Shown piece by piece: positions 11,317 through 35,287 of a DNA stretch of 64,000 bases. The notes under the pieces were generated by a model, which was given only the letters and a program-made list of their open reading frames with translations, was not told where the DNA came from and made no database searches. The DNA comes from a virus (Duplodnaviria > Caudoviricetes). Location: positions 25,879 to 89,878 of IMG/VR virus record IMGVR_UViG_3300031994_000053; one strand, written 5' to 3'. The first letter of the stretch is position 1, and the number at the start of each line of letters is the position of its first letter. A program made the position numbers and the translations under genes.

Positions 11317-11525
11317 ACAAGCACCGGCACTGGGAGTACATGGTCGTCGCGGTCGGGGAACGCCCGGCCGCGACGCCTGACTCCCCCGTGTTTTTCAGCA
11401 TGAAGGCCGCGCAGGCCGAGAAGGACAGGCTCGATACCACGGATTGCATATACGACATCCCGAGCAAAGGCTACCGGATCGTGCGCCGCTGGGTCGAGCA
11501 CGGAAGATGGGAGAGGGTAAGATGA
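11313..11525 (+). CDS. Hypothetical protein (70 aa)
   Basis: GTGA overlap upstream with GGGGAGG RBS; ATGA overlap downstream. Confidence 0.6.
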   Translation: MNKHRHWEYMVVAVGERPAATPDSPVFFSMKAAQAEKDRLDTTDCIYDIPSKGYRIVRRWVEHGRWERVR

Positions 11526-13486: not shown

Positions 13487-13613
13487 GGTCTGCGCCATGT
13501 TCTTCGGCGGCGTGATAGTCGGGTGTCTGATCGCCGCGTCGTTTCTGGCAGGCCGCCGCTGCGGCTACTGGGAGAGGGTTGAGGAGGAAAGGTTTGCAAG
13601 GGGCATACGATGA
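13479..13613 (+). CDS. Small single-TM protein (44 aa; not in the ORF track)
   Basis: GTG 13479 after AAAGG; MFFGGVIVGCLIAASFLAG; TGA overlaps ATG 13610. Confidence 0.55.
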   Translation: MSEVCAMFFGGVIVGCLIAASFLAGRRCGYWERVEEERFARGIR

Positions 13614-18400: not shown

Positions 18401-21400
18401 GCCCCTTGTGAGCGCCGCGTCGCGGTACGCGTCCACGACGTCCATCGCGGCGCGGTAGTCGATCCCGGCCTCCTCCTTCGTCCCGAACTTCGCGGCCCAG
18501 GCGTTCTGGAGGCTCTTCGAGTAGATGGCTTCCGCCAGGCCGGCGTAGGTCGCGTCCGCGGGGAGCTCGAGCCCGGTGCGCCGTGAGCGCGCGGAGCCCG
18601 GCTCGAACCCGCCGGCCGCGATGAGGTCGATGAGAGGCTGCCCCGACACGCCGATGCCGTACAGATTGGACAGCATGTCAAGTCCGTTGATGACCTTGTC
18701 CGCCTGGAGGTCGCGGACGGGAACGTCGGCGAACTCGGAGTCGACGACCGCCTTCATGCGCTCGTAGTCGCGGCTTGCGGCTCCCTGCCGGTCCGCCGCG
18801 CGGTCGCGGAGGGCGCGCTGCGCGTTGTACATGAACACGCCGGAGCCACGCCAGAACGGGAGCGCCGTGCCGAAATTGCTGAAGTACGCGCCGTCGCCGT
18901 GGGTGAGCCACGGGTGCGCCTTCGCAAACCTGACGGCCTTCGAGTAGACGGCCATCATGTCCTTGATTATGGCGTCCCGGTCGAGCATTTCCGGCTTGCG
19001 GCCGCCCTTGTCGGACGTGAGCTTGCGGTACGCCTCGCTTCCGAGGAACGCGTCGTTGATTTCATCGCACGGAATCGTGGCGGCCGCGGACGTGAACCGG
19101 GGGAGCCCGTCGACGTCGTAGCGGTAGTTGTCGCGACACATCCCCTCGACGAGGCCCCTCTCCCGCAACGCGGATATGACGAGCGCGTTGTAGCGAGCGG
19201 ATGTCGGGCCACTGGCGCGGACTAACTTGTCGCCATCGGCCTCGGCCATGGCCGCGATGGCGCTGGCCACGAACCTCCTGCGGTACGGTTCGAGGATTTC
19301 CGGGGGTATCTGGTCGTCCATGCGACGCAGGGCGAACGACAGCGCGTCGAGTTGCTCCGAGTTCGCCAGTCGCCTCGCTATCGCCTCGCGGGAGTAGAAC
19401 GCGGGGTCACGGTTCATGCCGCCGTGGAACCGGATGTCGGCCACGCCAGTCACCACGCGGTCCTGGCGGGAGGCCCGGGCCGCGCACATCTTCTTGAAGA
19501 TGTCGATGATCCGAAGGTCGGATTCGGTCAGGACGATGTCGGCCAGCTGCCGGCGATAGTTGTCGAACTTGAGGTATTTCCCGCCGGCTGCCCACACAAC
19601 CTGGCCGTCTTCGAGTGCGTGCGTCGCATCGTGCTCCAGCAGCTTCAGGATGCGCCCGCCGGCCTCGACATTGTCGCCGAAGAGGAAGGCGTGGAAGTTC
19701 TCGAGCCTCGCGATCTCGCCCTTGATGGCGTCGTACTCGTGCATCTCGGCCGATAGCATCTCGCCGATGTTGCCCTTTGCGCCGAACGACTTGCGGATGA
19801 GCGACCGTGACCACGCGGAGACGTTTTCCGCGATGAAGCTGGACTGGTCGGAGTAGTCGACGAGCCCCGCGTCGCCAGCGAGGTTCGAGTCGCCAGCCGC
19901 CTGGGCCGCCAGCCACTCGGCCGCGGTGAGCCCGGCCGGGACGCCATGCCGCTCCCGCGCCGCCTTCTGGAACTCGAGGTCCTCGGGGGTCGCGGGCTCG
20001 GTGCCGGTCTCCCGGTAGAACTTCGCCATCGCGGCGACCTGGTAGGCCGCGGACACGCACGCCTTGAGGCCGCGCTGGAACTCGGGGTCGGAGACGAGGG
20101 CCCGGCGCCGGGCTATCACCGGCGCGTCGTCATCGTCGAGCAGCCGCGCCGTCGACACGTCGCCCCGCTCGTCGACCTCGTTCACCGGCACGAAGTCCGG
20201 CATCCGCCCGCGGGCGTCCGGCTTCCCGGCCCTCACGCCGGTCCACAGGGCGTGCATCACGCGGTCGATGGTCTCCGCCCCGTCCGTCTCGACGTACCGG
20301 GCGAGGCTTCCAGGGTCCTTCACCATCGCGGCGAGCGCGTCCATCTGCTGCTTCTGGAACAGCAGCTCGGCGGCGAGCTCGCCCCCCGCCCCGTTCTCCA
20401 TGGCGCGCTTCAGCCGTGTCCCCGCGGACGCCGCGGCCCGCGCCGCGACCTTCGACGGGGCAACCGGGTCGGAGGACGTTACCCAGGCGGAAACCTGGTA
20501 CATGCTCGCGTGGCGGGCCTTCGGGTCGCGGCGGAAGTCACCGGTGATCTTGTCGTGGCGCGAGTTCGCGGGCTTGGCCTCGCCCGTCGCGGCGTCCACG
20601 TTGGTCCTCGTTATGAAGCTCGCCTCGAGCGAGTGGTACATCCGGAGCGCGGCCTGGAAGGCTATGCTGTCCCGGATGTCCTTGTCGTTCAGCTTGCCGA
20701 GGGCTTCGGGGTTCACGGTCGCGAGGGCGCGGCGCAGGCCGTTCATCACGATGACGCGGTCGCGGGCCACCTCGCGCGGGTCGGGCAGCGCGTACTTGCG
20801 CGTAACGTATTCGAGCCCGCGGCTCCAGCTGCCGTCGGTCTTGAGCCCGTGTTCCATTGATTCCCTGATCCACCGCGCCGTCGCGTAGAAGTCGTTGGAG
20901 ACCGACAGCGGCAGCGTTCCGCGACGCACGTTCCCCGCCGCCGCGGAGGCATTGGCCGAGGGCGTGCCCGCCGGGTCGGCCGGCGTGGCCTCGAAGAAGT
21001 CCTCCGTGTCGGAGACGGGGGCGGCGTTCCGGTCGTCGGCCACGCTCCGGCGCGTCTCCGCGGACTCCGCGAGAAGGCGGCGGAACTCCGCGTCCGGGAC
21101 GCGCTCCTCGCCTGTCAGCCTCCGCATGACGCGGAGGTCCGCGGCGCGCACCTTTTCGGCGGCCTCGGGGTTGGCCAGCGCGAACTTGTGCCAGCGCTTC
21201 GACCTGCCGAAGTCCGCTATCGTGTTGCCGAGGACAGGGGCCTCGACGTTCGCGGCGGCCGCGGCCTCGAGCTCCTCGGGGGTGCGGACAGTTTCCGACA
21301 CGGCGGGCGCGAAGGCGTTGCTCAGGACCGACGCGATGGCGGTCTCGTCGCCCTCTTCGAGACGCGCGACGGAGTCGTACATGCCCGCTGCCTCGGCGAT

Positions 21401-24400
21401 CGCGGCCTCGTCGTCCGGGTTCTCGCGGGCGCGCGCGGCCGCGGCCTCGGCGGCTTCGGTGCCCGCCGCGACGGCCGATGCGATGGCCTCCTCGTTCCGG
21501 GCCCGGCTTGTCTCCGCAATCCCGTGCACCACCATGTTGAATACGGTGTTGTCGGTGGCGAAGCCCTCGTCCCCGTAGTTGAAGCCATTCTTGAGGGAAT
21601 CCCAAAAGCCCTTGAGGAAATCGAGGATGCGTTGGAACACCCCGCGGGTCTCCGCGCCGGCGACTCCGGCATCCCCCTCGACCCACTTGCGGAACGCCTC
21701 GGCCGCGGCTTCCTCGTTGAAGCCGTGGGCGCGGGACGGGTCCGTGCCGAACTGCTTGCGGAGCGCCTCGTAGTCAGCCTCCCCGAACAGCCCGATGGCC
21801 TCGAACATACGCATCATCGAGTGGAAGTACTCGTGGTACAGTTCGGTGCCCTTCGCCCCGGCAGGAAGCTGGATCGCGCCGACGAGCGTCTGCGCGCCCT
21901 TGCCGCTGAACGACCACTCGACCTTGTGGGACGTGACACCGCCGATCGTCGCCTTGCGGGCGAGTTCCTTGCGGATCTCGAGCGGGAGGCGGGCGAAGTC
22001 GTCGGCCGTGAACGGCCGTTCCTTCGTGCCGAGGTTCACCGCCGCGCAGTACGAGGCCGCGAAGGCCCGCGAGTTTGCGAGGCGCTCCACGTCCTCCTCG
22101 GTCTCGGCGCGGAGGCCCTTGCCCGCGGTCTCGACCACGATGGAGACGCGGCGGCCGAGACCGGCGTTCCCGCGGAGCTTGCCGCGGATCGTGAACGCGG
22201 TGCCGCCGAGGTACTCCACGTTCGCCCAGGACGAGAGCAACCTGCCCATCGCCCTCGCGGCGTTGGCGGCTCGCTCGTCATATGCCCCCTTCGACAGGAG
22301 GGTCGGACGCGCCGGGGGTTCCGGCGCGGCGTTTGGCACATGTCCGACGTTGTACGCGTCGACGGCGTTCACCATGCGCTCGAACCGGTCGCCCGAGAAC
22401 AGCTCGAGCGAATGGCGGAACGGGGCCTGGACCCTGCCACGGGGTTTTCCGGCGGGCGTCCGGGCCTCCGGCGCCATGTCGTTCGCGACGAGAATGGCGC
22501 GGGACTCCGGGCCCAGCGCGGCCTCGGACGCCGACAGCATCCGGTAGTACCGGTCCGGCAGGATGCCAAACAGGGACGGGGACGCGCCGGACGGCGTGCC
22601 GGTCACGCGGGACGTGACGAGCGAGTAGAACGGGAGGATCTGGCCGACCAGCATGGCCGGAGTCACCGCGTCTATGCCGTAGTTTTCCTTCAGCGCGCCG
22701 AGCGCCGCCTTGGCGTCTTCGGCCATTGCCTTCAGCTCTGCCGAGGCGTTGCCGGCTTCCTTGACGAGCGCGTCAACGTTATCCGCGGTAAGCGTGTAGC
22801 CTTTCGCCCGGGCGTATGACTTGGTGGTCGCGTTGGCCGCTTCCATGCCGTCGCCCTCGAATCCCACTGATACGCGACGTTCGCCCGCGTACGCCCGCCC
22901 CGCTATGACGTCGTCAAACATCGCGCGGACACGTTCGTTGGCCGCCGTGTCGTTCTCGCGGTACGTGGGGCCGATGCGAAGGAGCCCGTCGCCCATGCGG
23001 CCGTACGGGAAGTACTTGTGCGGCTTGCCGTCGGAGTCCTCGCCAAAGATGTAGTACGTCTGCTCGCCGTAGCCGGTGTCCCGGCGTGCGGAGATGTACG
23101 CGAACGCCTTGTTGCCGGCCGCGGAGTTGAATTCCTCCGAGGTCACGATGGACCGGTACATCATGCCGAACATGGCCTCGACGCCGCGGCGGAACGCCAG
23201 CACGGTGGGTGCAGGGGCCACGTCCTTGGTGGAGATTTTATCCGCGCGCTTTTCATATATGGCCGCCGATTGGAGATAAGCCTGTTTTTCTTCTCCTTGG
23301 GCCGATTCTGCGGATACGCGCTTATTAACCGCGGCCCTGCGGAGTTTCGCGGCTTCATCCGCCGCGACCGCGCGCCGGGAAACCTCGCCAGCCATCTCGC
23401 GCATCGCCGCGTACATTTGGCGACCGTCCTTGAACACAGAGCCCGCCACGGGAAACGCGGCGAGGCTCGAGAGGAGTCCGTGCACGTACGGGAGCTGCTC
23501 CGCGTTGGACTCGATGTGCATCGCGTCCCAGGACTTGAGCCGGTCGGACTCGGAGACCAGAGGCTCCTTGGGGTCGGTTCCGTCGCGGTACGCGGTCATC
23601 GCGCCTGCCATGACGGTCTGGAGGCCTTCGCCCAGGGAGTATGCCATCCGCGTCGCCGCGTGCATTCTGCTCAAGGTCCCGGCCAGAGGTCCGAGTCCCG
23701 GGATTTCAACAGCCTTGGCGACGTCAAAGGTCGCCTTACCATCTTCCGACGTAAACGCCTCGCGGACCGAATCGCCAAGCGCCGTGGCGTTGGGCGAGCC
23801 CGGGTCGGCCGTCAGGTAGTTGATCGCCTGGCCGAACGACCGTGCGTCGTCAAGTTCGCACTTCATGCCGAACCACCGGGCGAACGCGGGGGCGGACGAT
23901 TCGTGACCCGATGCCAGCCATGCGACATACCCGAACACGGGGTTGTGCCCGCCATCCTTTGCGAGCTCCGTTATCAGCTTCCGCCGTTCGGCCCGTTTAA
24001 GCCCGCTGTTCATGACAGTGCGGAACCACGCGGGGGTCGCGCTCCCGAGTTGCAAAGACCCCGACTCCCATGTAAGGTCCAGGGCCTTCTCCAGCCAAGC
24101 CTTTGTAATGTTGTTCGGATCCGCAGAGTCGCCGGCCACGGCCTTCGCCATGTCTGCGAATTTCGGTCCATTGGCGGCGCCACGGCGTGTGGCGGCCAAC
24201 GCCCAGAGGAACCGGCCGCCATTCTTGATGTCCTTGATGTACGCGCCGAGCACGTCGGCAAACGCCTGGTCCGTCACGGGCAGCCCGGAGTCCCCGGCCG
24301 CCACATAATTGAGGAGGTTCGCGTAGACACTTTCAAGCATCTCCCGCGTCCAGCCCAGACGGCCGCACAGCTGTTCCTTCACGTCGTCGAACGTCGCATT

Positions 24401-27400
24401 GGATATGCCGTCGAGATGGTAGGCGAACTTCCACCAGTTTTCGGACAGGCCCGCGTTGTTCCGGAACATCCGGGGGAATGCGTCGCTCGCCAGCCAGGCG
24501 AGATGGAGGTTACGGGCCAGCGCCACGGCGATGCCACGCGCGTCGCCGGCGTCCTTTGCGGAAGTCGACACTTCGGCGGCGACCTTCGGGTCCCCGAGGT
24601 CCCGTTTATCTTCATTGCTTAGCGTGGGCGGCAGCATATCGTGGCGCAGTTCCTCCGCGGCCGCTCCACTGACCGGGAACGCCTTGGTCGGTGCCGACAC
24701 GAGCCCGTCAGGCGCCAGGAACGTCTCGCGAGGCACTCCGGAATTTTCGGAACTGAACCGGTCGACCAGCTGGAGCTTGTTCCCCTCCTGGTCCACGGCC
24801 GCGTGCACCGGCATGTGGCGCGCCATCTCGAACAGCGCCTTGACGAACGTATTGGAAACCCGGCGCCTCGCGTCCTCGGAAATTTTGTAATAAACGTCCT
24901 CTCCGGCCTCTGTCGCCTCGTCGACCGGCTTCTCCGTGTCGGACTCGGGGTCGTACCGCCAGGCTTCCAGGAACTTGCGCGTCTTCTTGTCCGCCCGGAA
25001 CGTCGCGGCTTCTGTCAGAAGCGCCCGGACGCCGTCGGGGTTGTTTTCAATTTTGTCGGGGTCCCCTTGATACTGCGGTATCTCAGCCTCCGGCAGCTGG
25101 CCGGTCCAACTTTGGTAAAGCAAGTATGCCTTGGTCTTGTCACCGTCGTGGTCGCAGCCGAGAAGCTGGTTGGTGAACGGGTCGGGCTGGACCATCGCGT
25201 CGGCGCCGACGCGCCAGCCCAGGGTCTTCCCCTTCGTGTCCTTCTCCTCAATCTCCGTGGCGGGAAGCCCGGCGCGGACCACCTGGAGCCACATGGACCC
25301 GTTGTAGGACGGGGTGCGCGGCAAGCCGAACATGGTGCCACCGAGCACGATGTGCTTCTGCCCGGTCGCGTCGTTGAAGATCTGGTCCCGCGACTCGCAC
25401 ATGACGGCCGTGAGGTCGAACACCTGTGCACCGGTACCCTTCGGGTCGTCACGGAACAGGTCGTCGAAACCGAAGTTGTCCGCCGCGCCCGGTATGTCGG
25501 ATATGTACCGGCCGTGGTGGTCCTTGAAGCACTCCGCGATCCGCCGCCGGAGGGCCGACCTTTCACCCCTGTCCTTGGTCCCGCGCAGGTTCTCGAACAC
25601 CCGGGCGATGCCGAGCGCGACCAGCTGGCCGGAGGTGAGCACGCCTTCGTGGTCTTTCGTGTAGTCTAGCAACGCACCCGAAATCTCGCTGTCGAAAGCC
25701 GTCCTGAACTTACCCTCGTCGAGGAACCAGGCGTACCGGAAGTTGCGCTGCGAGTAGTTGACGTTGCAGAGCGCGAAGTTGCGGTCCGCGCCGTAGAACC
25801 CCCGTTCCGACTTGCTGTACAGGCAGGAGCCGCGCATCACGTCGCGCTGCATCTGGCTGGCCGACATCGTGAACAGCTTCCCGTTGTCGTCCAGCGCCGC
25901 GCCGGACGACACGAGAGCCATGTCCACGCCGCCGAGCGGGAGGTTGGACGCCTGCCGTATCTCAGCCCACACCTGGCGGGCGAGCTCCTCGCGGGCAAAC
26001 TGCCCGCCGGCCGACTCGCCAGCCTCGCGGAGCTCGTTGAAGTGGCGGGCGCGCCGGGTCACGGAGCGCACGTACTCCGGGTTGGAGTAGACCGCGTTGG
26101 CGAACACGCCCCAGTCGGCGATGAGACCGAGGGCTTTCTGCGCAAGGCCCGGCGCGTTGTCGAGCGCGCCAAAGCGGGCGAGCGCCGTGGCCATCGTGGC
26201 CATGTCGACCTCGTAGTTGCGCGGGGACCGGCCCGGGACGTTCGGAAGCCTGGAGTTGTGGGACACGTTGGCCACGGGATACGCCATCGCGCCGTCCTCG
26301 CGGTACGAGAAGTCGAGCGCGGGGCCGGACAGGCCCGGAAGGTAGCGCAGTTCCGCGCCCGGCAGCAGCTCGGACAGCTTCATCGTCGATTCGCCGCGGA
26401 CGTCGTCCTTCACGGCGATGTCGCCGAACATCGCATCCAGCTGGTCGCCGGACACGCCACCCCCGAACGCGGTCCGCAGGGCCTTGTCGAGCTCGTCGAA
26501 CAGCACCTGCTTCCGCTCCCCGTCCTTGAGGTCGCCTTTACTGAACTTGCCGTCAACCGCCTTGTCGAACGCGAGGTCGTAGATGACCTTCATTAGGGTC
26601 CCGCCGTATTTGCGCTCCTGCCCGCCGACGATCGCCTTGACAGTGACCGTGATGGACTTGGACGACAGCGGGCCTATCTTGTAGGAATCCCTGTCGGTGA
26701 AGACGTCGGTGGACAGGTCGTCCGCGCCGCGGTACTTCGCGAGGTAGTCGTCGATGGCGCGGTCGGCGGAACCGGGCGCGAACTCGCCCGACCCGGAGGA
26801 CGTGGCGACGGACAGGGATTTGCCGAAGAACAGGTCGCGGCCCTGCGTGGAGATGAGGTGGACCTTGAGCAGGGACGAGGATGGGTCCTGCGCGGTCTCC
26901 TTCAGGGCGCGCGCCGCATAGCCGCGCATGAACGTGGAGCCGAGGAGCGCCTCGTTGGGCTTCTTGGCGTAGCCGTTCTCGCCGCCGAAGCTGAAGTCCC
27001 CGTCGTAGAACCGGAAATTCTCGCCGACGTGGATGCGGTTCTCGCCCCATGTGCGGTTGCCATCCTGGCCCACGCGAGTGCCAACCATGCCGACGCCCGT
27101 GGCCTCAAGGGATGAGATCGCGGAGCGCTTGGCGTCCACGCCCATGAGGGCCATGCCGATCGCACGGTAGACGGCCTTTGACGCCTCTTCGTAGGAAGGT
27201 ACGTGTTTTTTATCAGACGGTTGAGTCGCCGCCGGCGTTTCCTGGCGTAGCCGCTGGCGTGCCTCAGAAAGCGCTTTTGGGAACTCCGTGGCCCAAATGC
27301 CACGATCTTGCGTGTGGGTAAATGTCGCAGACCCCGTGTCAAGCAAAGCTCGCTTCGCCTCCGGGTTCTGCCGGAACGACTCGAAAACCAAGTCGCGCAT

Positions 27401-30400
27401 CAACTGCACATTGGTCCTGGTATCTGCCTGTCGGAAGCTGCGAATCTTCTTGCCCGCCGCCCACCTCTGTCGGTAGGTTGTTTCATCGAACGACCCGCTT
27501 TTCAGTGTTTGATACGCGTGCTCGACGGAAACGTAATCATGCCCCTGGAAAGAGAATGGCCGACTCGCCAAATTGCTGAACTCGGCGTTTTCGCCCGTCC
27601 CATGCCAAACGTTTATCGGGCCCTTAGGCTGACTAACAGTTTGGGTCGGTTGCTGCGCAACTTGCTGTAGGGCCTCCACCGTCAAATCAACCTCGCGCGG
27701 TATCTGGAGCAGCGTGTTGGACGAGTGGTCGCCAGAGAACAGCGGGACATAGTACGTCGTGCGCTTCTGATCACCGGCCATCGCCTCGTAGGAACGGCGG
27801 CAAGCCTCATACACTTCGTTCGGGCTGAAGCTGGCCGACAGGCACTTCGCGCAGATCGGGGTCCGCGCGGCATCCGGCCACGTGGCGTCCTGGCGGCACT
27901 CGGCTATGACCTCGTCAGTCACGCCGGGGAAGAACCGGCGGCACGTCTCGGCGAACGTCGGGAGCGTGGTCCCGTCCGCGAGCTTCAGCGCGGTGGACTC
28001 GTCGGCGTAGAGCCAGCGCGACACGAGGGGCACGAGGTCCCGGGGCGCCACGGCTATCGAGGACGCCTTGGTCCCGCGCCGCTGGTCGATCTCGGCCGCC
28101 ATGATGGTCGTGGGGAGGCTGTTCTGGAAAATGTCGAGGACGGAGAACACGGGGCTCTCCATCGCCACGCTGGACGACGCGCCGGCGACGCCCGCGGCCT
28201 GCGGGTTGCCGGTCGCGATGGCGGCCGTCATCACGGCGGATATGTCGGAACGCGACAAGTTCCCGGACATCCGGGACAGCGAGTCGAGCGCATAGGCTAT
28301 CGTGTCGATGAACTCGACCGTCTGGGCCTTTGGCTGGTACTTTGTCTTGTCGGGGCGCTCGATTTCCGCCGGCACGGGCATTCCGTCCCGTATGCGCAAC
28401 GCGGTCACGCCATTTGAATACCCGTGCGGGCGTAACGTAAGCGCCAAATTCTGCAACACCTCGGTCCGTACGCGGGCAAGCTGTGCGAACGCCATGTCGG
28501 AAGACAGCGCCGTGCAGAGCGGGGACTCGCGCCCGAACGCCTGCCCGATGATGCCGGACAGGACCCGCATGTTCTGCTTCACGGCGGCTATGAGCTGCGC
28601 GCGCGTCGCGTTGGCCGGTTGCTTGGGTGCCCAGCCGGCCGCGTCGTCGGCAGCCTTGAGCAACTGGTCCTTCAGTTCCCTTGCCTTGGCTGCGGGCCGC
28701 CCGTCGAGCTCGGCGAAGCTGTCGGCCACAAGGGACTCGGCGATGCGGCCGCCCCCGCGGGACTGTGCCTCGCGGATCACCATGCCGCCGCCCTCGTTCT
28801 CCTTGAGGGCTATCGGGGTCGCCGCGACGGAGTACGCCATGAGGCGGGCCAGGCGGAAACGCCCGTTCGGGCGCATCGAGGTCAGATAGGAAAGGAGGAA
28901 CGCGCCCTTGCGGGACACGGGCCTGCCGTCCGTACCGTTCCCGAGGAGCGACCGGATGTACCCGTTGGCCTCCTCGCCGCCGAGCTTCAGGAGGTCCTCG
29001 CGGAGCAGGGCGTCGTGCTGCGGGAGCGACGCCCCCTCACGGTTGGCCCTCGGGTTGAGGATGCGGTACAGGAACTTCCCGGCGTCGCTGGGCGCCGCGT
29101 CGGCGCGCACCGACCCGCGGGCGAGGCGGACGAACCCTTGGAGGTTCGCGCCGGTTTCCGGGGACGCCTTCGCGGCGAGCGCGAGAAACGTGCGCATGGC
29201 GTCGGACGTGTACTCGTCGACCGCGACACGGTTGTAGTCGTCGGACGAAAGGCTCTCGTCGTCCTTCACGTCCTCGGCGAAGAACCACACGCCGGACGAC
29301 GCGGCGTCGGACCAGTCCCCCCGGTTCCTCACGCGGTCGTCGTCCATGCGGGTGTACGCCGCCAGGACCTCGGCGCGGTCCGCGGCGTCCATGCCGGGGA
29401 ACATCTTTCGGAGGACGCCGGCCACGCCGGCGCGATTCACGGGTTCGCCGCTCGCCAGAAGGGCGCGGACGGCGACCGCCGCGGCCGTGTCGGCCTCGCG
29501 GGGCTCGAGGTGTCGGCCGGCGGGGCCGACCTCCAGCCCGTGCATCACGGTGAAGCCGTCGAGGTTCGCCGCGTCGGGCGCCATCGCCGGGAGCTCGCGA
29601 GTCCCGCCGAACACCACGGTGGGGTCGTCTTCGAGCACGATGTCGTCGTTCGTCGTGTCGTCGTTCGAGTCGATGGCCGTCACGCTGCGCGGACTCCAGG
29701 TGGCTCCGGCGCGGCCGCCGAGGTCACTTGCGCGGACGACCCGCGCTCCCGTCTCGGCCTGGACCTTATCAAGATTTGTCGCAGCGTCCTTCGCGGCGTC
29801 ATCGGCTGCCTGGTACTCGGCGCGTGCCCGGTTCACTTCTGCATTGAGGTCTTCAACAGATGCGCCGGACTCCGCGGCGGCTTCGGCCACGGCCTCCGTC
29901 CCCTCGACCCGTGCGGCGGCCGCGTCAAGTTTGGCCATCGCGTCAATCACATTCCTGCGGGCTTCGTTCCGTCTCTCCTCCGCGTCGACTTTTGCGTTTG
30001 CCGCCTCGGCCACGCGTTCCGCCGGTGTCTGGTCCACATTGTACAGCGCGCGCTTGATCTCGCCGAGCATCCCGCGGGCCGCCGTCTTCTGGGCCTCGGT
30101 GACGGTCGGGTCGGTCACCGCGTCCTCCATCAGCTTGGCCATGACCTTGGTGAACGCGCGCGGGACACTGCCCTCGCGGGTCATTTCGGCAGTCCTCTTG
30201 AGCACGCCGACGAGCCTGGACATGAAGTTGAGGTGGGCTTCCGCGGCCTCCGCGGCCGTGGCCTTCGGGGTCTCGGCCTCCTTCGCCGCCTCCTTCAGCT
30301 CCTCGGTCTCCTTCGGGGACGCGGCCTCCCGCGACGCACCCTCGGACTTCAGCATCGATGTCATGCCCTGGAGCATCCGGTCGAGGAACTGGGAGTACGT

Positions 30401-33400
30401 CATCCCGGCGGGGAGCGACGCCTCCAGCGACTTCCTCATCGCCTCGGCGTCCCCGTCAGCCCACGCCATCAGGGCCGCGACGCCGCGGGGTTCGGCCGGG
30501 GCGGACTTGTCCCGGTTCGCCGCGCGGACGGCCTCGGAGAGGAACCCGTCGCCGCCAAGCACGAGGTCCGCCGTGTTCATGAAGAACGCGTAGGACGGCA
30601 GCCTGCGGGCGCGCTCGGCAAGGACCGCGGCGGCGCGGAGGAACGGGTTCTCCTTGTACTTCTCGGCGCGATTCAGCACGAACGCCGATACGATGCGCGC
30701 GAACCCCTCGCCGGTGAGTCCGGCTGTGTGGCGGGCCTCGTACCGGCCGTCCTCGGTCTCCACCACGACGTCGGAGCCGCGGAGGTAACTGTCGCGGAAG
30801 TTCCTGATCTGTTCGGCCAGCGGCACGTCCTTCGCCTTGTAGGCGTCCTCGATGGCCTGGTCGGCCACGGCGGAGAGCTGCCGGATGTAGTCCGCCGTGT
30901 TCTCGCCTGTCGCGCCGGTGGACAGCAAATGCCCGCGGTTGAGGAACGCCCGGAGCATGACACCGTTCAGCACGGCATCCATCATGTCGGCGTTGACCGT
31001 CGGGTCAACCTGGATGAAGACATCGGACGAGACATTGGCGACGCGGCCCGCGGACATCTTGAACGTGTACCTCGGGTGCGTGTACGCGGCAGCTTCGCCC
31101 GTGACGGCGGACGATCCGTCTTTCTCGACGCCGTGCCGCGTGAGGATGCGCTCGCCGACCGTCATGTAGCCAGTCTCGCCCCAGACGCGCTCCCACGCCT
31201 TGCGCTCGTCCGTGCCGGCGTCCGCGGTCTCCCCGCGCGCCGCCGCGGCGAGCTCCCTCGCCAGGACATCGCGCGCCGCGTCCTCCTCCAGCAACTCGCC
31301 CGATTCCTTCTGGCGGAGCATCGGATGGAGGCTGTCGTTCTGCGCGGAGACGCCGCCGAGCGCCCTGTAGTACTCGCCGGAGTAGCCCAGCTCACGGAGC
31401 GCGTGGAACATGTCGCCGAACTCGATGACCTTCGCCTGGGTGATGACATACCTTCCGCGCTCGCGGGCCCAGCCGTGCTCCACCAGGGACGCGACGGCCT
31501 CGTCACGGGTGCCGAAGGTTTCGGACGCCTGCCCGTCGATGCCGACGACCCACTTGCCGCCAGTCTCGCGGAGACGCGCGCGCTCGGTGCCGTTGGGCGA
31601 GAGCCTTGCGGCCATCCCGCGAAGGTCCTCCACGGGCTTCGAGTAGTATTCGGTGCCGCGGTCCCTGTCGGCCGTCAGCAACTTGGCCATCCTGAAGATC
31701 TCGTCATTGCGTGCGGCAAGGCCCTTTTCGGTGCCGTCGAACCCGCGGCGCATCGACTGCGCGACGGACTCGAACACAATGCCGTCGACATCCGACACGT
31801 TCGCCTTGCCCCCGATGTACTCGATCGCGTCGGCCGTGGCCGTGCTGACCGCACCCCCGCGAAGAATCTCGGCCAGGGGCACGTCGCCCTCGTCGGTGCG
31901 TATGCGGTGGAGCAGGCCGTCTTCGCCGACGATCCTCGCGGCGGCGTCGTACACGGCTATGGCCGCGAGGTCCGACCTCGAGTTCACCGCGTTGTCGACC
32001 GCCTGGACGACCTTGCCGTCCACGTTGGCGCTATAGCTAAGGCCCCGGACGACAAGGTCCGTAGTCGCCCGCAGAATGTCGCGGTACGCGGCTTCCACCT
32101 CGTCCCGGTGCGCTTCCGCGAACTCCTCCGCGGGAATGACGCTGGTTTCGTCAACGGCCGTCTTGTCCTCCGTCAGGCGGTAGAGCACGGGCTTGCCGTC
32201 GCGTATGGCGGACAGGTACGGGCGCGGGTCCGCCGGGTCCTCGTGGTGCGCGGCTGCGTACTCAAGGGCCTGGGACCGGAACAGCCCCTGGGAAAACGAG
32301 CGGAGCTGGCTGACGGTGGTGTCCGCGCGCATGATGTCGCGGGCCCTCTGGGCGAACCGGCGCTGTGCCTCGTCCAGGACTTGTGCCTGGGTTGGCTTCC
32401 CGCCTTCGGCCTTCACGGCCATCTCGCGGCGCGTCCGGAGGTACTCCTCGCGGAACCCGCTCTTGAGCGCCTTGACGGTGTTTTCCTCCAGCCCCATGTC
32501 GCGGGCCGTCCACTGGGACGGGTTGACGGCGGCCATGCCGAAGTCGCCCGTGGCGAGCGCGGCGGCGAACCCGACGATCTTGTGCGCGGCGCGACGGTAC
32601 CACGCGGGCTCCTCGCCCTCGAGGTGCATCTCGGACGTATAGAGGTCGCGGGCCAGCTCCGGCGCGTAGTCCGCAAGATTGTCGCGGGCGGAAAGCCCCG
32701 CCTCGGCGTCGCGCGCCGAATAGGTCGGGGTCAGCTTGTTCATGAGGTCGTCCGCCAGGAAGCGGCTCGGGATGAGTGGGACGGCGAGCAGCTCGCCGTT
32801 CGCCTTCGCGACTTCATCGACCGTGGCGGAGAAGCTGTTGTGGCGGGCCTCGCGGCGCTCCACGACCTTTGTCGTCTCGGCGATCTGCTCCTCCAGGTCC
32901 TTCGCCTTGGACTCGTCGCCGGCGGCACGGGCCGCGTCGCGAAGCGTCCCGAGCCGCTCGATCTCGGCGCGGTCCTTCTCCTGTAGCATCTCGTGAACGC
33001 CGACATAGTCGCTCCACGTCATCTGCGCGGGGTTCGTGACGCGGTTCACCTCGGCAATGGCGTCGAGCCGCGCCCGCATCTTCGTCAGTTTACCCTCGCC
33101 GCCTATGGCGGACTGGGCGCGGAGAGCCAGGGTCCTGGTCACGCCGGGGATCGCGAAGCCAACGGCCTCCGCGACCAGCTGGTCCCAACCGGGAAGCGCG
33201 CCGGCCTTCGCGCTGGCCAGGCCGGCCTTGAGGTTGCGCCAGAACTTCTCCGGCTCGGACCGCCACTTCGGTCCGTCGGGGTTGGCGTCGAGGCCGAGCA
33301 GCCCGTTAACCACGTCGGCGTAGCGCTCCTCGAACATCTCGCCGAGAACGCCGTCGTAGCCGCCGGTCCGCCACAGGTTGAGCACGGATTCGGCGCCAAG

Positions 33401-35287
33401 GTTGTGGCGCGCCATGAAGTCGCCCAGCACGTACCGCATGTACGCGCGGTTCAGCTTGCCCTGGAACTGGCGGTCGTACATCTCGTCCAGGGCCTTGGCC
33501 GCGAACTTGCGGAAGTCATTGCCGATCGCGGCCTTCATCGCGTCGGGAAGCGAGGCGGCCGAGCCGCTCTCCACGGCGTTCCGTATAAGCGCCTTTCCGG
33601 CCACGTCCGTGACGCCAAGCTTCGCCGCGACGGCCTCGGCCTGCCTGCCGGCGGCCGCCCGCATGAACTCCTGGCGCGTGCCACCGGAGGACAGGATCAT
33701 CTCGCGGAGACGCGCGCCGATGGCGTAGCCCTTCCCGTCGTCCGCGAGGCCCGCGGCCACGTCGACGAGACGGGACGGGGTGACAAGACCCTTCACGCCG
33801 GCGCGCTCGAGACCCAGGCCGGCCGCGTGGAAAACGGAATTCAGGCCGCGGCCGGTGTTCTCGGAAATGTACTCCATGAGGCCGAGGCCCATCGACATCG
33901 ATTCGGCGCAGTCCATCAGACCCCAGTTCCCGGTGCGAAGGGCCGCGGCCTCGAAGGAAAGCCGGTTCTCGGTGACGACCCTGCCGTCCGCGCCCCAGAG
34001 CGCGCCGACGGCCGGGCGGGCGACGAACTGGTTAGGCGCCCACATCATCGCGCCGCGGACCGGGGCCTCGACGAACCAGGCCCCCGCGGCGTCCGCGAGG
34101 GACTTGCCGATGGAATCGCGAGACGTGTAGAGAATCGTGCTCTCCTCGGTGCCGTACGTGCCAAAGTCGAGGAGCCCGCGGGAAAGGTTGTGCGTGGCCC
34201 ACTGCCCGAAGGACTTCAGGCCGCGGGCGACGGCGCCGCCGGACGTGCGCGACGCATACCGTGCCAACTCGATGCCGGCTCGCTTTTTCGCGAGCTCGCG
34301 GATGGCCTCGGAGGACAACCCCTTGTATGCGGTCTTCTCCATCTGGGCCTTGAGCATGAAGTTCGCGATGTCGTCCGCGACGCCGCTCTCGATGGCGGCC
34401 TTCGCGGCGTCGTCCGAAAGGTTGGCCAGCGTGCGGGCACCGGCTTTCGCCAGGGCCTCGCCAGCGGCCTTCTCCGTGAACTCGCGGGCGAGGATTTTCG
34501 TGGCGCGGTTCATCGCGAGGGCCGTGCTCTCGGGGAGCGCGCGGGACGCGGCGCCGCGGACGGCGCCGCCAATGAAGCTCGTAGCGGCGAACTCGGCCAT
34601 GAAGCCCGGCGCGTGACGGGCGATGTCGCCCACCGTGCCCATGAGCGTCGTGTTGTTGGAACGGTAGTCCTGCTCCGCCATGTAGAGGCGGGCGCGGATC
34701 AGCTCCTCGTCGGAGACATCCTCCTTGTTCCGCAGCTTACGGAATGTGTCGGAGACCATCTGCGCGTCGCGGAAGGAGTTGCGGACGCTGGCGATCATGC
34801 CGACGAACGGAAGGTCGGAAACGGAGACTTCGGAAAGAGCCGTGAGAAAGCCACGCTTCACGCCGTCACGGGTCTTGCCCGCTATTTCGAGAAGCCTACG
34901 ACCGTCTTCCGATCTCATCAGTTTGTCTCGGGAGACCGCACGGCCAAACACGTTGAGCGATACAATATCGTTAGATGTGAGGGGCAGACCGGCACGCTCG
35001 CCATAGGCGACGGTTCGGCTTCCGTCAAAATCCGGGTCAAGCGTATACCAATCGCCAGCCATCCCGTCGAACGGTACCGCATTCGGGTCAGGCGGGTCAG
35101 CATAGCTGATGCTCAAAGGAGCCACACGGGCGGCCTGCTGCGTGGCCAGCGTCTGCTCAAGAAGCGATTCCCGCCGGGCCGAAAGATATTCTGCGAGGGA
35201 ACCGGGCTCGGCCCCGGAGCCAAACAACGGCTCGCGGGCCACGGCAAAGTCAGACTGCGATAAATCGGAAAAGGAAAAAAGGGCCAT
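15440..35287 (-). CDS. Giant (6615 aa) multidomain virion/ejection protein: putative two-barrel RNA polymerase, NADAR and zincin domains
   Basis: One uninterrupted 19.8-kb ORF with its own promoter and GGAGG. YDG (D2762), LKVH..GK, SYKIG, PRTP (R3324), GCDHDGD (D3379); NADAR SVEHAYQTLK; HEYFH (H4485). Confidence 0.85.
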   Translation of the reverse strand: MALFSFSDLSQSDFAVAREPLFGSGAEPGSLAEYLSARRESLLEQTLATQQAARVAPLSISYADPPDPNAVPFDGMAGDWYTLDPDFDGSRTVAYGERAGLPLTSNDIVSLNVFGRAVSRDKLMRSEDGRRLLEIAGKTRDGVKRGFLTALSEVSVSDLPFVGMIASVRNSFRDAQMVSDTFRKLRNKEDVSDEELIRARLYMAEQDYRSNNTTLMGTVGDIARHAPGFMAEFAATSFIGGAVRGAASRALPESTALAMNRATKILAREFTEKAAGEALAKAGARTLANLSDDAAKAAIESGVADDIANFMLKAQMEKTAYKGLSSEAIRELAKKRAGIELARYASRTSGGAVARGLKSFGQWATHNLSRGLLDFGTYGTEESTILYTSRDSIGKSLADAAGAWFVEAPVRGAMMWAPNQFVARPAVGALWGADGRVVTENRLSFEAAALRTGNWGLMDCAESMSMGLGLMEYISENTGRGLNSVFHAAGLGLERAGVKGLVTPSRLVDVAAGLADDGKGYAIGARLREMILSSGGTRQEFMRAAAGRQAEAVAAKLGVTDVAGKALIRNAVESGSAASLPDAMKAAIGNDFRKFAAKALDEMYDRQFQGKLNRAYMRYVLGDFMARHNLGAESVLNLWRTGGYDGVLGEMFEERYADVVNGLLGLDANPDGPKWRSEPEKFWRNLKAGLASAKAGALPGWDQLVAEAVGFAIPGVTRTLALRAQSAIGGEGKLTKMRARLDAIAEVNRVTNPAQMTWSDYVGVHEMLQEKDRAEIERLGTLRDAARAAGDESKAKDLEEQIAETTKVVERREARHNSFSATVDEVAKANGELLAVPLIPSRFLADDLMNKLTPTYSARDAEAGLSARDNLADYAPELARDLYTSEMHLEGEEPAWYRRAAHKIVGFAAALATGDFGMAAVNPSQWTARDMGLEENTVKALKSGFREEYLRTRREMAVKAEGGKPTQAQVLDEAQRRFAQRARDIMRADTTVSQLRSFSQGLFRSQALEYAAAHHEDPADPRPYLSAIRDGKPVLYRLTEDKTAVDETSVIPAEEFAEAHRDEVEAAYRDILRATTDLVVRGLSYSANVDGKVVQAVDNAVNSRSDLAAIAVYDAAARIVGEDGLLHRIRTDEGDVPLAEILRGGAVSTATADAIEYIGGKANVSDVDGIVFESVAQSMRRGFDGTEKGLAARNDEIFRMAKLLTADRDRGTEYYSKPVEDLRGMAARLSPNGTERARLRETGGKWVVGIDGQASETFGTRDEAVASLVEHGWARERGRYVITQAKVIEFGDMFHALRELGYSGEYYRALGGVSAQNDSLHPMLRQKESGELLEEDAARDVLARELAAAARGETADAGTDERKAWERVWGETGYMTVGERILTRHGVEKDGSSAVTGEAAAYTHPRYTFKMSAGRVANVSSDVFIQVDPTVNADMMDAVLNGVMLRAFLNRGHLLSTGATGENTADYIRQLSAVADQAIEDAYKAKDVPLAEQIRNFRDSYLRGSDVVVETEDGRYEARHTAGLTGEGFARIVSAFVLNRAEKYKENPFLRAAAVLAERARRLPSYAFFMNTADLVLGGDGFLSEAVRAANRDKSAPAEPRGVAALMAWADGDAEAMRKSLEASLPAGMTYSQFLDRMLQGMTSMLKSEGASREAASPKETEELKEAAKEAETPKATAAEAAEAHLNFMSRLVGVLKRTAEMTREGSVPRAFTKVMAKLMEDAVTDPTVTEAQKTAARGMLGEIKRALYNVDQTPAERVAEAANAKVDAEERRNEARRNVIDAMAKLDAAAARVEGTEAVAEAAAESGASVEDLNAEVNRARAEYQAADDAAKDAATNLDKVQAETGARVVRASDLGGRAGATWSPRSVTAIDSNDDTTNDDIVLEDDPTVVFGGTRELPAMAPDAANLDGFTVMHGLEVGPAGRHLEPREADTAAAVAVRALLASGEPVNRAGVAGVLRKMFPGMDAADRAEVLAAYTRMDDDRVRNRGDWSDAASSGVWFFAEDVKDDESLSSDDYNRVAVDEYTSDAMRTFLALAAKASPETGANLQGFVRLARGSVRADAAPSDAGKFLYRILNPRANREGASLPQHDALLREDLLKLGGEEANGYIRSLLGNGTDGRPVSRKGAFLLSYLTSMRPNGRFRLARLMAYSVAATPIALKENEGGGMVIREAQSRGGGRIAESLVADSFAELDGRPAAKARELKDQLLKAADDAAGWAPKQPANATRAQLIAAVKQNMRVLSGIIGQAFGRESPLCTALSSDMAFAQLARVRTEVLQNLALTLRPHGYSNGVTALRIRDGMPVPAEIERPDKTKYQPKAQTVEFIDTIAYALDSLSRMSGNLSRSDISAVMTAAIATGNPQAAGVAGASSSVAMESPVFSVLDIFQNSLPTTIMAAEIDQRRGTKASSIAVAPRDLVPLVSRWLYADESTALKLADGTTLPTFAETCRRFFPGVTDEVIAECRQDATWPDAARTPICAKCLSASFSPNEVYEACRRSYEAMAGDQKRTTYYVPLFSGDHSSNTLLQIPREVDLTVEALQQVAQQPTQTVSQPKGPINVWHGTGENAEFSNLASRPFSFQGHDYVSVEHAYQTLKSGSFDETTYRQRWAAGKKIRSFRQADTRTNVQLMRDLVFESFRQNPEAKRALLDTGSATFTHTQDRGIWATEFPKALSEARQRLRQETPAATQPSDKKHVPSYEEASKAVYRAIGMALMGVDAKRSAISSLEATGVGMVGTRVGQDGNRTWGENRIHVGENFRFYDGDFSFGGENGYAKKPNEALLGSTFMRGYAARALKETAQDPSSSLLKVHLISTQGRDLFFGKSLSVATSSGSGEFAPGSADRAIDDYLAKYRGADDLSTDVFTDRDSYKIGPLSSKSITVTVKAIVGGQERKYGGTLMKVIYDLAFDKAVDGKFSKGDLKDGERKQVLFDELDKALRTAFGGGVSGDQLDAMFGDIAVKDDVRGESTMKLSELLPGAELRYLPGLSGPALDFSYREDGAMAYPVANVSHNSRLPNVPGRSPRNYEVDMATMATALARFGALDNAPGLAQKALGLIADWGVFANAVYSNPEYVRSVTRRARHFNELREAGESAGGQFAREELARQVWAEIRQASNLPLGGVDMALVSSGAALDDNGKLFTMSASQMQRDVMRGSCLYSKSERGFYGADRNFALCNVNYSQRNFRYAWFLDEGKFRTAFDSEISGALLDYTKDHEGVLTSGQLVALGIARVFENLRGTKDRGERSALRRRIAECFKDHHGRYISDIPGAADNFGFDDLFRDDPKGTGAQVFDLTAVMCESRDQIFNDATGQKHIVLGGTMFGLPRTPSYNGSMWLQVVRAGLPATEIEEKDTKGKTLGWRVGADAMVQPDPFTNQLLGCDHDGDKTKAYLLYQSWTGQLPEAEIPQYQGDPDKIENNPDGVRALLTEAATFRADKKTRKFLEAWRYDPESDTEKPVDEATEAGEDVYYKISEDARRRVSNTFVKALFEMARHMPVHAAVDQEGNKLQLVDRFSSENSGVPRETFLAPDGLVSAPTKAFPVSGAAAEELRHDMLPPTLSNEDKRDLGDPKVAAEVSTSAKDAGDARGIAVALARNLHLAWLASDAFPRMFRNNAGLSENWWKFAYHLDGISNATFDDVKEQLCGRLGWTREMLESVYANLLNYVAAGDSGLPVTDQAFADVLGAYIKDIKNGGRFLWALAATRRGAANGPKFADMAKAVAGDSADPNNITKAWLEKALDLTWESGSLQLGSATPAWFRTVMNSGLKRAERRKLITELAKDGGHNPVFGYVAWLASGHESSAPAFARWFGMKCELDDARSFGQAINYLTADPGSPNATALGDSVREAFTSEDGKATFDVAKAVEIPGLGPLAGTLSRMHAATRMAYSLGEGLQTVMAGAMTAYRDGTDPKEPLVSESDRLKSWDAMHIESNAEQLPYVHGLLSSLAAFPVAGSVFKDGRQMYAAMREMAGEVSRRAVAADEAAKLRRAAVNKRVSAESAQGEEKQAYLQSAAIYEKRADKISTKDVAPAPTVLAFRRGVEAMFGMMYRSIVTSEEFNSAAGNKAFAYISARRDTGYGEQTYYIFGEDSDGKPHKYFPYGRMGDGLLRIGPTYRENDTAANERVRAMFDDVIAGRAYAGERRVSVGFEGDGMEAANATTKSYARAKGYTLTADNVDALVKEAGNASAELKAMAEDAKAALGALKENYGIDAVTPAMLVGQILPFYSLVTSRVTGTPSGASPSLFGILPDRYYRMLSASEAALGPESRAILVANDMAPEARTPAGKPRGRVQAPFRHSLELFSGDRFERMVNAVDAYNVGHVPNAAPEPPARPTLLSKGAYDERAANAARAMGRLLSSWANVEYLGGTAFTIRGKLRGNAGLGRRVSIVVETAGKGLRAETEEDVERLANSRAFAASYCAAVNLGTKERPFTADDFARLPLEIRKELARKATIGGVTSHKVEWSFSGKGAQTLVGAIQLPAGAKGTELYHEYFHSMMRMFEAIGLFGEADYEALRKQFGTDPSRAHGFNEEAAAEAFRKWVEGDAGVAGAETRGVFQRILDFLKGFWDSLKNGFNYGDEGFATDNTVFNMVVHGIAETSRARNEEAIASAVAAGTEAAEAAAARARENPDDEAAIAEAAGMYDSVARLEEGDETAIASVLSNAFAPAVSETVRTPEELEAAAAANVEAPVLGNTIADFGRSKRWHKFALANPEAAEKVRAADLRVMRRLTGEERVPDAEFRRLLAESAETRRSVADDRNAAPVSDTEDFFEATPADPAGTPSANASAAAGNVRRGTLPLSVSNDFYATARWIRESMEHGLKTDGSWSRGLEYVTRKYALPDPREVARDRVIVMNGLRRALATVNPEALGKLNDKDIRDSIAFQAALRMYHSLEASFITRTNVDAATGEAKPANSRHDKITGDFRRDPKARHASMYQVSAWVTSSDPVAPSKVAARAAASAGTRLKRAMENGAGGELAAELLFQKQQMDALAAMVKDPGSLARYVETDGAETIDRVMHALWTGVRAGKPDARGRMPDFVPVNEVDERGDVSTARLLDDDDAPVIARRRALVSDPEFQRGLKACVSAAYQVAAMAKFYRETGTEPATPEDLEFQKAARERHGVPAGLTAAEWLAAQAAGDSNLAGDAGLVDYSDQSSFIAENVSAWSRSLIRKSFGAKGNIGEMLSAEMHEYDAIKGEIARLENFHAFLFGDNVEAGGRILKLLEHDATHALEDGQVVWAAGGKYLKFDNYRRQLADIVLTESDLRIIDIFKKMCAARASRQDRVVTGVADIRFHGGMNRDPAFYSREAIARRLANSEQLDALSFALRRMDDQIPPEILEPYRRRFVASAIAAMAEADGDKLVRASGPTSARYNALVISALRERGLVEGMCRDNYRYDVDGLPRFTSAAATIPCDEINDAFLGSEAYRKLTSDKGGRKPEMLDRDAIIKDMMAVYSKAVRFAKAHPWLTHGDGAYFSNFGTALPFWRGSGVFMYNAQRALRDRAADRQGAASRDYERMKAVVDSEFADVPVRDLQADKVINGLDMLSNLYGIGVSGQPLIDLIAAGGFEPGSARSRRTGLELPADATYAGLAEAIYSKSLQNAWAAKFGTKEEAGIDYRAAMDVVDAYRDAALTRGELFGGAVGLNDLDMFRRTGTLPANYQIGHKVHVAIDGLANAMMSRATLANMLMTPAYDGAPVYYADPSDIAADVSGLPDAFWQNVARWWCEYNGDAYDEKLSGVQNAKREFAALRAKMTANKGVLGTNPETACRYREHKDANASIASVERWLVREAEEAAPHGRIADFAIDKLGLGEALGYLQQFLGASRAMGTGGPAARSLLHRALGWSKAMSVSFSFFFPLATRFESPTAAVGALATLGGNYKPIADYMREHPKAFDFLRKLPGGPAWITKNFLGFSDIVDMMDSNDPFLAELYAWANALGVRTSTSLVSPLEDAQAMTQGDLDHLKRIIRDTYGAEIAAKFGRMARDVALRQSDKAFNYALNATKLAVTAQLATKLRYLAERQGKAFDPIRDLKKYADYINAEVGGLDPLKYSWAHPANRRLLNVLMFSWQWTRGAWEAGGGKVLEDLAFGTNTASRQERAHYIGRWARMLGLVMLGFPQVLQILSTALAKVLDAAAGGMDGDDDDRLSDEEFYAAFHRERTAAEKVRFARATAGMGGPEFLAKYGRGRDRFEMAAYADRHSWHNRDVWFTWQNEDRARWKSADITPLLRAIARFDDTRLGGALRSFKRGGRFGAGVAGAAAGAVAGYAGGGNWLTGLVGAGLGATAGRVSPDFIPLYMGDDPANGSYNRRVYVHAGKQGWEEVRWFEDPIGQFLSKLSMPAQRVTEGILGFNPGYMAQALPWSEMGWAERWLSPTVDGATWNLMQAWMPFSFSGMTRNRDAGFVSMALPVQRGASKTALGKELTKQLDLWARNDRRGYATGDGRGRYAKVNDVLLEARRNGYDPAALMKSTSQELLAKYYGELFRALMKYDPSAPFDSASLNRPARAALRLGGAFDRAVASMRSRVKSSGARVGDAEGRAMYLMLGQAYANPNMAIEYGPEVREAANGGAALGNFLATDKIPDTIFGIKVVQTPEEYTEADLEFFREHPRAAGFYELEGEGR

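Follow-up and report, generated by a model that had tools for sequence, protein, structure and literature searches.

A His-type NADAR domain in an exchangeable slot of a giant, polymerase-like phage protein

Introduction

What is a NADAR domain, a fold associated with the removal of ADP-ribose (ADPr) from nucleic-acid bases, doing in the interior of a giant phage protein that resembles an RNA polymerase? The question is raised by a 64,000-nucleotide stretch of a Caudoviricetes genome (positions 25,879 to 89,878 of IMG/VR record IMGVR_UViG_3300031994_000053; hereafter “the window”), in which a single open reading frame (ORF), P0001, encodes a protein of 6615 amino acids (aa) with such a domain between its conserved regions. 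An earlier note on this DNA, made from the sequence alone, had read the domain as a recently acquired anti-defence enzyme, co-injected as part of the polymerase and placed to clear ADP-ribosylated DNA from the first moment of infection. Phage NADARs have been shown only recently to defeat DarTG1, and the tested examples are all small, stand-alone early proteins.

A NADAR fold within a giant open reading frame

The elements needed to locate the domain are the following.

15440..35287, minus strand: giant ORF P0001, 6615 aa in one uninterrupted frame, carrier of the NADAR insert
27242..27622, minus strand: NADAR/YbiA-fold domain, aa 2556-2682, found with Pfam, a subfamily hidden Markov model (HMM), AlphaFold2 and VIA-align
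27623..27697, minus strand: N-terminal Gln/Thr/Pro-rich linker, aa 2531-2555, read from the sequence and unconserved among homologues
27191..27241, minus strand: C-terminal Gln/Thr/Pro-rich linker, aa 2683-2699, likewise read from the sequence and unconserved

The domain reads FSNLASRPF at aa 2570-2578, SVEHAYQTLK at 2587-2596, TFTHTQDRGIW at 2655-2665 and FPKAL at 2669-2673. The residues quoted in the earlier note, its numbering of E2589 and K2596, and the Gln/Thr/Pro flanks that it described all match the translation, and its assignment of aa 2556-2682 to NADAR is upheld by Pfam/HMM searches (for Pfam, below the gathering score) and by AlphaFold2, Foldseek and VIA-align. A subfamily alignment was built from 22 stand-alone members and the P0001 domain (23 sequences). 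The subfamily HMM scores the P0001 domain at 188 bits, with an envelope that extends to aa 2692, and 17 of the 23 members find the Pfam NADAR family when searched individually (E<=0.01). Searched against PDB sequences, the subfamily profile retrieved E. coli YbiA (2b3w, E 1.5e-6) and a Phytophthora NADAR (8bau, E 0.0022); a match to T4 RNase H (E 0.0044, profile positions 71-133) was treated as chance because the fold searches gave NADARs only.

Structure prediction from the subfamily alignment yielded a confident model (predicted local distance difference test (pLDDT) 92.3; predicted template-modelling score 0.87), whose top three Foldseek matches in the PDB are 2b3w, 8bau and 8bat, the three solved NADARs. 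With VIA-align, the model superimposes on 2b3w at Z 13.6 (137 residues aligned, root-mean-square deviation (rmsd) 2.9), on 8bau with bound ADP-ribose at Z 13.2 (131 aligned, rmsd 2.6) and on the DarT1-linked NADAR 8bat at Z 8.1, the best match thereafter standing at Z 2.6. Matches in a viral structure library comprise NADARs of giant viruses, phages and nidoviruses, along with pieces of crAss-like phage giant proteins. At the level of the predicted structure, the NADAR/YbiA fold assignment of aa 2556-2682 is secure.

Predicted catalytic residues and NADAR type

Three codons mark the positions expected to be catalytic.

27521..27523, minus strand: predicted catalytic Glu2589, aligned with E43 of 8bau and with the YbiA Glu, invariant in the 23 members
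27500..27502, minus strand: predicted phosphate-binding Lys2596, seven residues after the Glu, aligned with Phytophthora K50, invariant in the subfamily
27314..27316, minus strand: His2658 of the TH.QD motif, third catalytic position, placed on Phytophthora E125 in the 8bau profile alignment, invariant in the subfamily

In the E. coli C7 NADAR, Schuller et al. found E88, K95 and D171 to be required, the Phytophthora counterparts being E43, K50 and E125 (PMC11543638). At the third of these positions, YbiA-family members have Glu, DarT1-linked NADARs have Asp, and phage NADARs of the gp30.3 type have His (PMC11543638, PMC11125620). The subfamily alignment has 20 invariant columns, the Glu, the Lys and the TH.QD His among them, and judged by its sequence the P0001 domain is a His-type NADAR. 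In the alignment to YbiA, the subfamily His falls one residue off the third catalytic position, which leaves the register somewhat doubtful. Membership of the gp30.3/AdfN family was rejected, as the match to Phage_30_3 (PF08010) reaches 16-17 bits against a cut-off of 36; weak matches to this family were obtained for four of the 23 subfamily members.

Given that E. coli YbiA is the closest of the solved structures and that TIGR02464 is matched weakly, we considered whether the domain might be a YbiA-type housekeeping N-glycosidase of riboflavin intermediates. The TIGR02464 score of 26.9 bits is, however, far from the cut-off of 73.7 bits, so that YbiA equivalog identity was rejected, the Glu of the YbiA family is replaced by His, and a metabolic damage-control enzyme would have no obvious use in a giant phage protein. 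We regard this explanation as extremely improbable.

An in-frame insert in an exchangeable slot

A search with the polymerase-like region of P0001 (described below) recovered 78 giant homologues of 3.9-7.5 thousand aa, all of metagenomic origin. Across aa 2551-2700 their BLAST coverage of P0001, near complete on either side, drops from 76-77 of the 78 homologues to 9-19. Conserved blocks border this gap, which we call slot A; a second drop in coverage defines slot B.

27698..27751, minus strand: left border of slot A, YVP..SGDHSS...P block, aa 2513-2530, with P2515, G2519, H2521, S2523 and P2530 invariant in 14 giants
27104..27157, minus strand: right border of slot A, G..L...D.KRS......E block, aa 2711-2728, with G2711, L2714, D2718, K2720, R2721 and E2728 invariant
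20537..21520, minus strand: variable region slot B, aa 4590-4917, an Ala/Glu-rich low-complexity segment in P0001

The length of slot A was taken as the distance between conserved anchors at aa 2380-2520 and 2700-2860 in 77 homologues. Most have only a linker of 20-30 aa (median 31), compared with 179 aa in P0001 and 100-1056 aa in the clade nearest to it. The inserts of this near clade are not NADARs; all-against-all BLAST resolved them into several modules of about 130 aa (the commonest), 110, 180, 340 (common to P0002 and P0004) and 360 aa. The last of these is DUF1848 in P0033 (E 3.1e-20, above cut-off; L008:9189-10373), and by BLAST DUF1848 is also present in slot A of P0004 and P0013 and elsewhere in six other giants. 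More generally, slot A modules recur at different positions in other giants. The giant proteins can thus be described as a conserved scaffold with variable, exchangeable modules, as in polyvalent proteins.

NADARs themselves are thinly spread over this scaffold. By the subfamily HMM they occur in five of the 79 giants, in slot A of P0001 and P0017 and in slot B of P0059, P0060 and P0067, where they map between P0001 aa 4589 and 4917. The search of representative sequences added three more distant giants, P0080, P0105 and P0156; in P0080 the anchor HMMs did not detect the slot A borders, so its NADAR slot is not established as homologous. In a FastTree phylogeny of 148 NADAR domains, those of P0001, P0017 and P0080 form one clade (support 0.92) and those of P0059, P0060 and P0067 another (1.0), those of P0105 and P0156 fall elsewhere, and the common ancestor of all giant-family NADARs covers 115 of the 148 leaves. 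The use of two slots together with the separate tree branches indicates that the giant family acquired NADARs on several occasions, or exchanges them.

Base composition also sets the insert apart. Its GC content is 0.572, compared with 0.676 for the gene, and its GC content at third codon positions (GC3) is 0.677, compared with 0.883, which bears out the AT-richer codons seen earlier. No window of the gene is lower in GC than the one beginning at aa 2548, and just 1.3% (GC) and 1.8% (GC3) of windows of the same length lie below the insert. GC3 values below that of the insert are confined to the 5' end of the gene, and other variable regions are likewise GC3-reduced. No notable direct or inverted repeats flank the NADAR insert, so the insertion mechanism left no trace in the DNA. 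Overall, the P0001 NADAR is an in-frame insert in an exchangeable cargo slot, as the pattern of presence and absence among homologous giants shows (mostly the short linker, with a NADAR in five of 79). Whether it was recently acquired is less clear: composition and patchy distribution fit later acquisition, but the NADARs of P0001, P0017 and P0080 form one clade in divergent giants, which would allow for an old cassette that has been exchanged or lost, as opposed to one newly captured.

A slot that accepts anything from a 20-aa linker to 1056 aa could in principle also hold a decaying or purely structural passenger, a spacer within a variable linker, and a Pfam NADAR score under the gathering cut-off would suit such a view. 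P0001, however, keeps 20 of the 20 subfamily-invariant columns, including the E, K and H, its model is confident (pLDDT 92) and its frame is undisrupted. Moreover, slot-A NADARs are 62-65% identical to each other versus 23-41% for the giant backbones, which points to purifying selection on the domain. A mere passenger is, in our judgement, very unlikely.

A polymerase-like core beside the insert

C-terminal to slot A, P0001 carries a further conserved region.

24338..27187, minus strand: two-barrel RNA-polymerase-like core, aa ~2700-3650, with K2808, K2823, D2865/D2867/K2870, R3324-T-P and D3379-H-D-G-D3383

Across 14 to 31 giants, the core columns K2808, H2810, K2823, D2865, D2867 and K2870 are invariant or nearly so, and the motifs R3324-T-P-S-Y-N and D3379-H-D-G-D-K are also kept, a pattern of the kind expected of a two-barrel RNA polymerase. 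A single-sequence search with aa 2700-3600 against PDB sequences gave no match. An AlphaFold2 model of aa 2400-3590, built with 13 homologues, has a mean pLDDT of 64, with 587 residues at 70 or above, and its top PDB match in both Foldseek and VIA-align is gp66 (6vr4), the virion RNA polymerase of phage phi14:2. The VIA alignment to gp66 covers 583 residues (rmsd 6.4, 9% identity) and places model positions 3-1191 onto chain positions 297-1554; the other single-chain two-barrel polymerases with long alignments are QDE-1 (Z 3.7, 429 aligned) and P23-45 gp96 (Z 3.2, 219 aligned). Together, the motifs and the model suggest, short of conclusively, that the core is a two-barrel polymerase.

The conserved block that precedes the two-barrel motifs follows the NADAR at a distance of about 30 aa, which agrees with the earlier placement of the NADAR next to the polymerase. 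The gp66 alignment extends to either side of the insert, so that the NADAR may sit within the polymerase-homologous region and not merely beside it.

Occurrence of the NADAR subfamily

An exhaustive HMMER search of 1.84 billion representative sequences returned 871 relatives of the subfamily at E<=1e-3, 566 of them at E<=1e-10. Among the best 149 of the 871, 48 lie in proteins longer than 3000 aa, 47 in proteins of 1001-3000 aa and 24 in proteins of at most 250 aa, and for 142 of these 149 the NADAR is the sole similarity to P0001. The NADAR subfamily is therefore mostly a component of very large phage proteins.

By tblastn, 14 GenBank phage records match the subfamily, including Bacillus phage AgentSmith, the Xylella phages Sano and Salvo, and two crAss-like phages; T4-like phages, T5-like phages and Vequintavirinae are not represented among these 14. 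In the crAss-like phage cr126_1, a 2402-aa protein annotated as DUF1768-containing (QOR59539.1) has a NADAR at residues 62-189 (51.6 bits, over the cut-off) and is encoded directly upstream of an RNA polymerase subunit gene; its NADAR is 37% identical to that of P0001 (E 2e-20), and the similarity is confined to the NADAR. In the crAss-like phage cr130_1, the NADAR is internal to a protein of 5801 aa (YP_010113266.1). Four large NADAR-bearing proteins from other phage groups yielded no further Pfam domains. A stand-alone member of the subfamily is encoded among small genes that follow one another on the same strand, and no ADP-ribosyltransferase (ART) gene lies nearby.

A proposed role in early counter-defence

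We propose that the NADAR was probably acquired to undo the ADP-ribosylation of nucleic acids by host defences. Under this proposal, the giant protein would be packaged in the virion and accompany the DNA into the cell, in the manner of crAss-like RNA-polymerase cargo; the tethered NADAR would strip the bases of the incoming genome, or those of its first transcripts, of ADP-ribose; the modification would come from host ART defences, DarT1-like or others; and the template would thereby be kept usable for the co-delivered polymerase. Stated in full, the view that P0001 holds a functional-looking His-type NADAR in an exchangeable slot of a giant polymerase-like protein, and that this protein is injected and de-ADP-ribosylates the incoming genome or early transcripts, is one that we consider reasonably likely.

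Several published observations make this role plausible. The RNA-polymerase proteins of crAss phages are virion cargo and are ejected ahead of the DNA (PMC10172136). Every phage NADAR tested to date removes ADPr from guanine in DNA, and several neutralise DarTG1 (PMC11257639). The NADARs tested, that of phage T4 included, also all reverse guanosine ADP-ribosylation of RNA (PMC11833690), and a 2026 paper reports that NADARs reverse cytidine-ADPr (PMC12945103). It is by analogy with these cases that we infer packaging and ejection, enzymatic activity and substrate for the P0001 NADAR. If the giant protein is injected, counter-defence would be ready before any phage gene is expressed, which matters because DarT acts on incoming DNA.

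Importantly, however, a number of observations weigh against a role of this kind. The Pfam NADAR (PF08719) score of the domain is 33.2-33.9 bits (E 4.6e-8 to 7.5e-8), just under the 35.1-bit gathering score. The third catalytic position is His throughout the subfamily, without the Asp (D171 of E. coli C7) of the DarT1-linked antitoxins, and the P0001 domain is not close to T4 AdfN, NADAR-Bas32 or NADAR-Bas60. T4 gp30.3 and YbiA, active in vitro, gave no protection from DarT1 in cells (PMC11125620), so the fold does not predict the target. The likeness of the core to the virion RNA polymerase gp66 (6vr4) is weak (Foldseek E 0.32; VIA-align Z 7.3; model pLDDT 64). Eleven large neighbouring ORFs on the minus strand (326-1218 aa; window 35339-57114 and 8575-13498) matched no Pfam or PHROG family, except for one weak match (ORF 39228-40718, E 6.4e-5) to a PHROG of unknown function. 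Finally, Iyer et al. favour soluble ADPr derivatives as the substrates of most phage NADARs (PMC9503650).

This last view leads to an alternative in which the domain would degrade soluble ADPr-derived molecules, be they immune signals of the cyclic ADPr isomer kind or the by-products of defences that consume NAD, and so blunt signalling defences at the start of infection. Besides the argument of Iyer et al., the occurrence of stand-alone subfamily members in the company of small, early-type phage genes that lack a nearby ART would be in keeping with it. On the other hand, base-linked ADPr, in DNA or in RNA, is the substrate of all the NADARs that have been assayed biochemically, the NADAR literature examined contains no report of activity on cyclic ADPr signals, and tethering to a polymerase better suits a nucleic-acid substrate. 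We therefore judge a soluble target to be rather unlikely.

Another alternative keeps the nucleic-acid substrate and makes it specifically RNA, with the NADAR de-ADP-ribosylating guanosine or cytidine in the polymerase's own early transcripts or in host RNAs and thereby countering RNA-targeting ART toxins instead of DarT1. The reported activities on guanosine and on cytidine would allow this, as would the fusion of the NADAR beside an RNA-polymerase core. The same observations, however, fit RNA and DNA substrates alike, and the slot B NADARs of relatives lie about 2000 residues from the polymerase core, which indicates that closeness to the polymerase is not required. An exclusive role on RNA also seems fairly improbable to us.

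No match to DarT, ART-PolyVal, ADPrib_exo_Tox or Macro was found in the 89.9-kb phage record, although the DarT and ART-PolyVal searches were silent in control genomes too and are weak negatives. A self-antidote pairing of the NADAR with a phage-encoded ART was set aside for lack of any of these matches. Among relatives of P0001, the precomputed Pfam annotations of P0021 and P0079 include ART-PolyVal, or RNase_T and a PDDEXK nuclease; with ART-PolyVal in relatives, the giant family would hold ADP-ribose-adding and ADP-ribose-removing modules, in different members.

The proposal of injected counter-defence can be extended to the whole family. The giants may represent a virion-delivered polymerase scaffold with swappable bays for repair or de-modification enzymes, with the NADAR, DUF1848 and several unnamed modules moving from phage to phage and from bay to bay, and with de-ADP-ribosylation of the incoming template or nascent RNA by the tethered NADAR physically coupled, in the P0001 phage, to first transcription. 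We put this combined picture forward as a speculative possibility; if true, the coupled NADAR and polymerase would constitute a transcription-coupled anti-defence repair device. The contents of slot A across the 79 giants amount to a ready-made list of candidate “first-minute” activities in anti-defence or DNA repair, mostly without a known family, and the NADAR cassette, which can be swapped or deleted, provides a simple experimental handle.

Comparison with known systems

The orphan NADARs of phages, T4 gp30.3 (AdfN), NADAR-Bas32 and NADAR-Bas60 (PMC11257639), share with P0001 the NADAR fold in a phage, the Glu/Lys pair and the lack of an adjacent cognate toxin gene, and T4 gp30.3 also shares the His at the third position. 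Unlike the P0001 NADAR, which is internal to a 6615-aa protein and only remotely similar to them in sequence, these orphans are small, stand-alone and early. DarT1-associated antitoxins (E. coli C7 and Geobacter lovleyi 8bat; PMC11543638) have the same fold, as indicated by the VIA-align match to 8bat, and the catalytic Glu and Lys. They differ in having the Asp (D171), extra nucleic-acid-binding extensions and an adjacent DarT1 gene, whereas the P0001 NADAR has the His, measures about 130 aa and lies inside a giant ORF of a phage record with no DarT match.

In cr126_1 and cr130_1, phages of about 95-99 kb, the signature of this NADAR subfamily is likewise found within a very large protein. 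In cr126_1, however, the NADAR is N-terminal and on a polypeptide separate from the polymerase, while the P0001 NADAR lies inside the chain that also bears the polymerase-like core; the crAss-like NADAR phages also have Bacteroidota hosts and low GC, compared with 65% GC for the P0001 phage. The P0001 core shares with gp66 of phi14:2 (6vr4) the DxDGD and Lys motifs and the likely single-chain two-barrel layout; gp66 has 2180 residues, with no NADAR seen in it though no search aimed at one was made, and its match to P0001 is weak.

Polyvalent proteins, as described by Iyer et al. and summarised in PMC9503650, resemble P0001 in being large, multidomain and presumably virion-delivered, with variable early-acting enzyme modules, and ART domains are named there as their commonest modifying enzymes. 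According to that paper, viral NADARs other than those in RNA-virus polyproteins are typically stand-alone, whereas that of P0001 is embedded, and the P0001 backbone, with its two-barrel polymerase-like core, represents a separate family that has no name. Anti-DarT activity of phage NADARs, predicted virion packaging of NADARs, polyvalent proteins and the NADAR giants of crAss-like phages have all been described or annotated before. New here are the in-frame NADAR within a polypeptide that also contains a two-barrel polymerase-like core, its occurrence in a GC-rich, uncultured lineage unlike crAss phages, a defined cargo slot whose contents differ among relatives, and a NADAR subfamily that is mainly a giant-protein component.

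The phage record, neighbouring genes and other features of the giant protein

The source record comprises 89,878 bp (CheckV completeness 94%; GC 65%). The P0001 backbone, searched by tblastn with its polymerase region, found no match among 50,697 GenBank phage records. The phage lineage is absent from these records, and nearly all of its genes lack annotation. A search of IMG/VR with P0001 as a single protein returned no related loci; an alignment-based search for giant-protein relatives returned only two IMG/VR loci and one contig of 91,134 bp from a metagenome-assembled genome (MAG). This phage-sized contig (CAYPEJ010000018.1, L006), with a giant-protein relative at 32% identity, was binned with an uncultured Anaeromicropila (Lachnospiraceae) MAG, and this is the sole, indirect hint at a host for the wider giant-protein family. 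The sources of the related contigs are gut and other metagenomes. No tRNA genes were found in the window, and one neighbour of the giant ORF matched a named family.

14174-15439: phage lysozyme/endolysin gene, 421 aa, directly downstream of the giant ORF

Some relatives are organized differently from P0001. In L008, the giant protein stops after 3919 aa (924-12683), and a second long gene begins 77 bases on (12760 onward), which indicates that in some relatives the chain of 6615 aa is divided over at least two genes. P0059 and P0060 also carry UvrD/AAA_30 helicase domains. In P0001 itself, homologue coverage collapses in further hypervariable regions at aa ~1650-1950 and 3700-4300. An HExxH motif, HEYFH, lies at aa 4485-4489 (window 21821-21835, minus strand), with H4485, E4486, F4488 and H4489 invariant in 14 giants and further conserved acidic residues about 40 aa downstream, and this pattern suggests that the giant protein includes a zincin-like metallopeptidase module.

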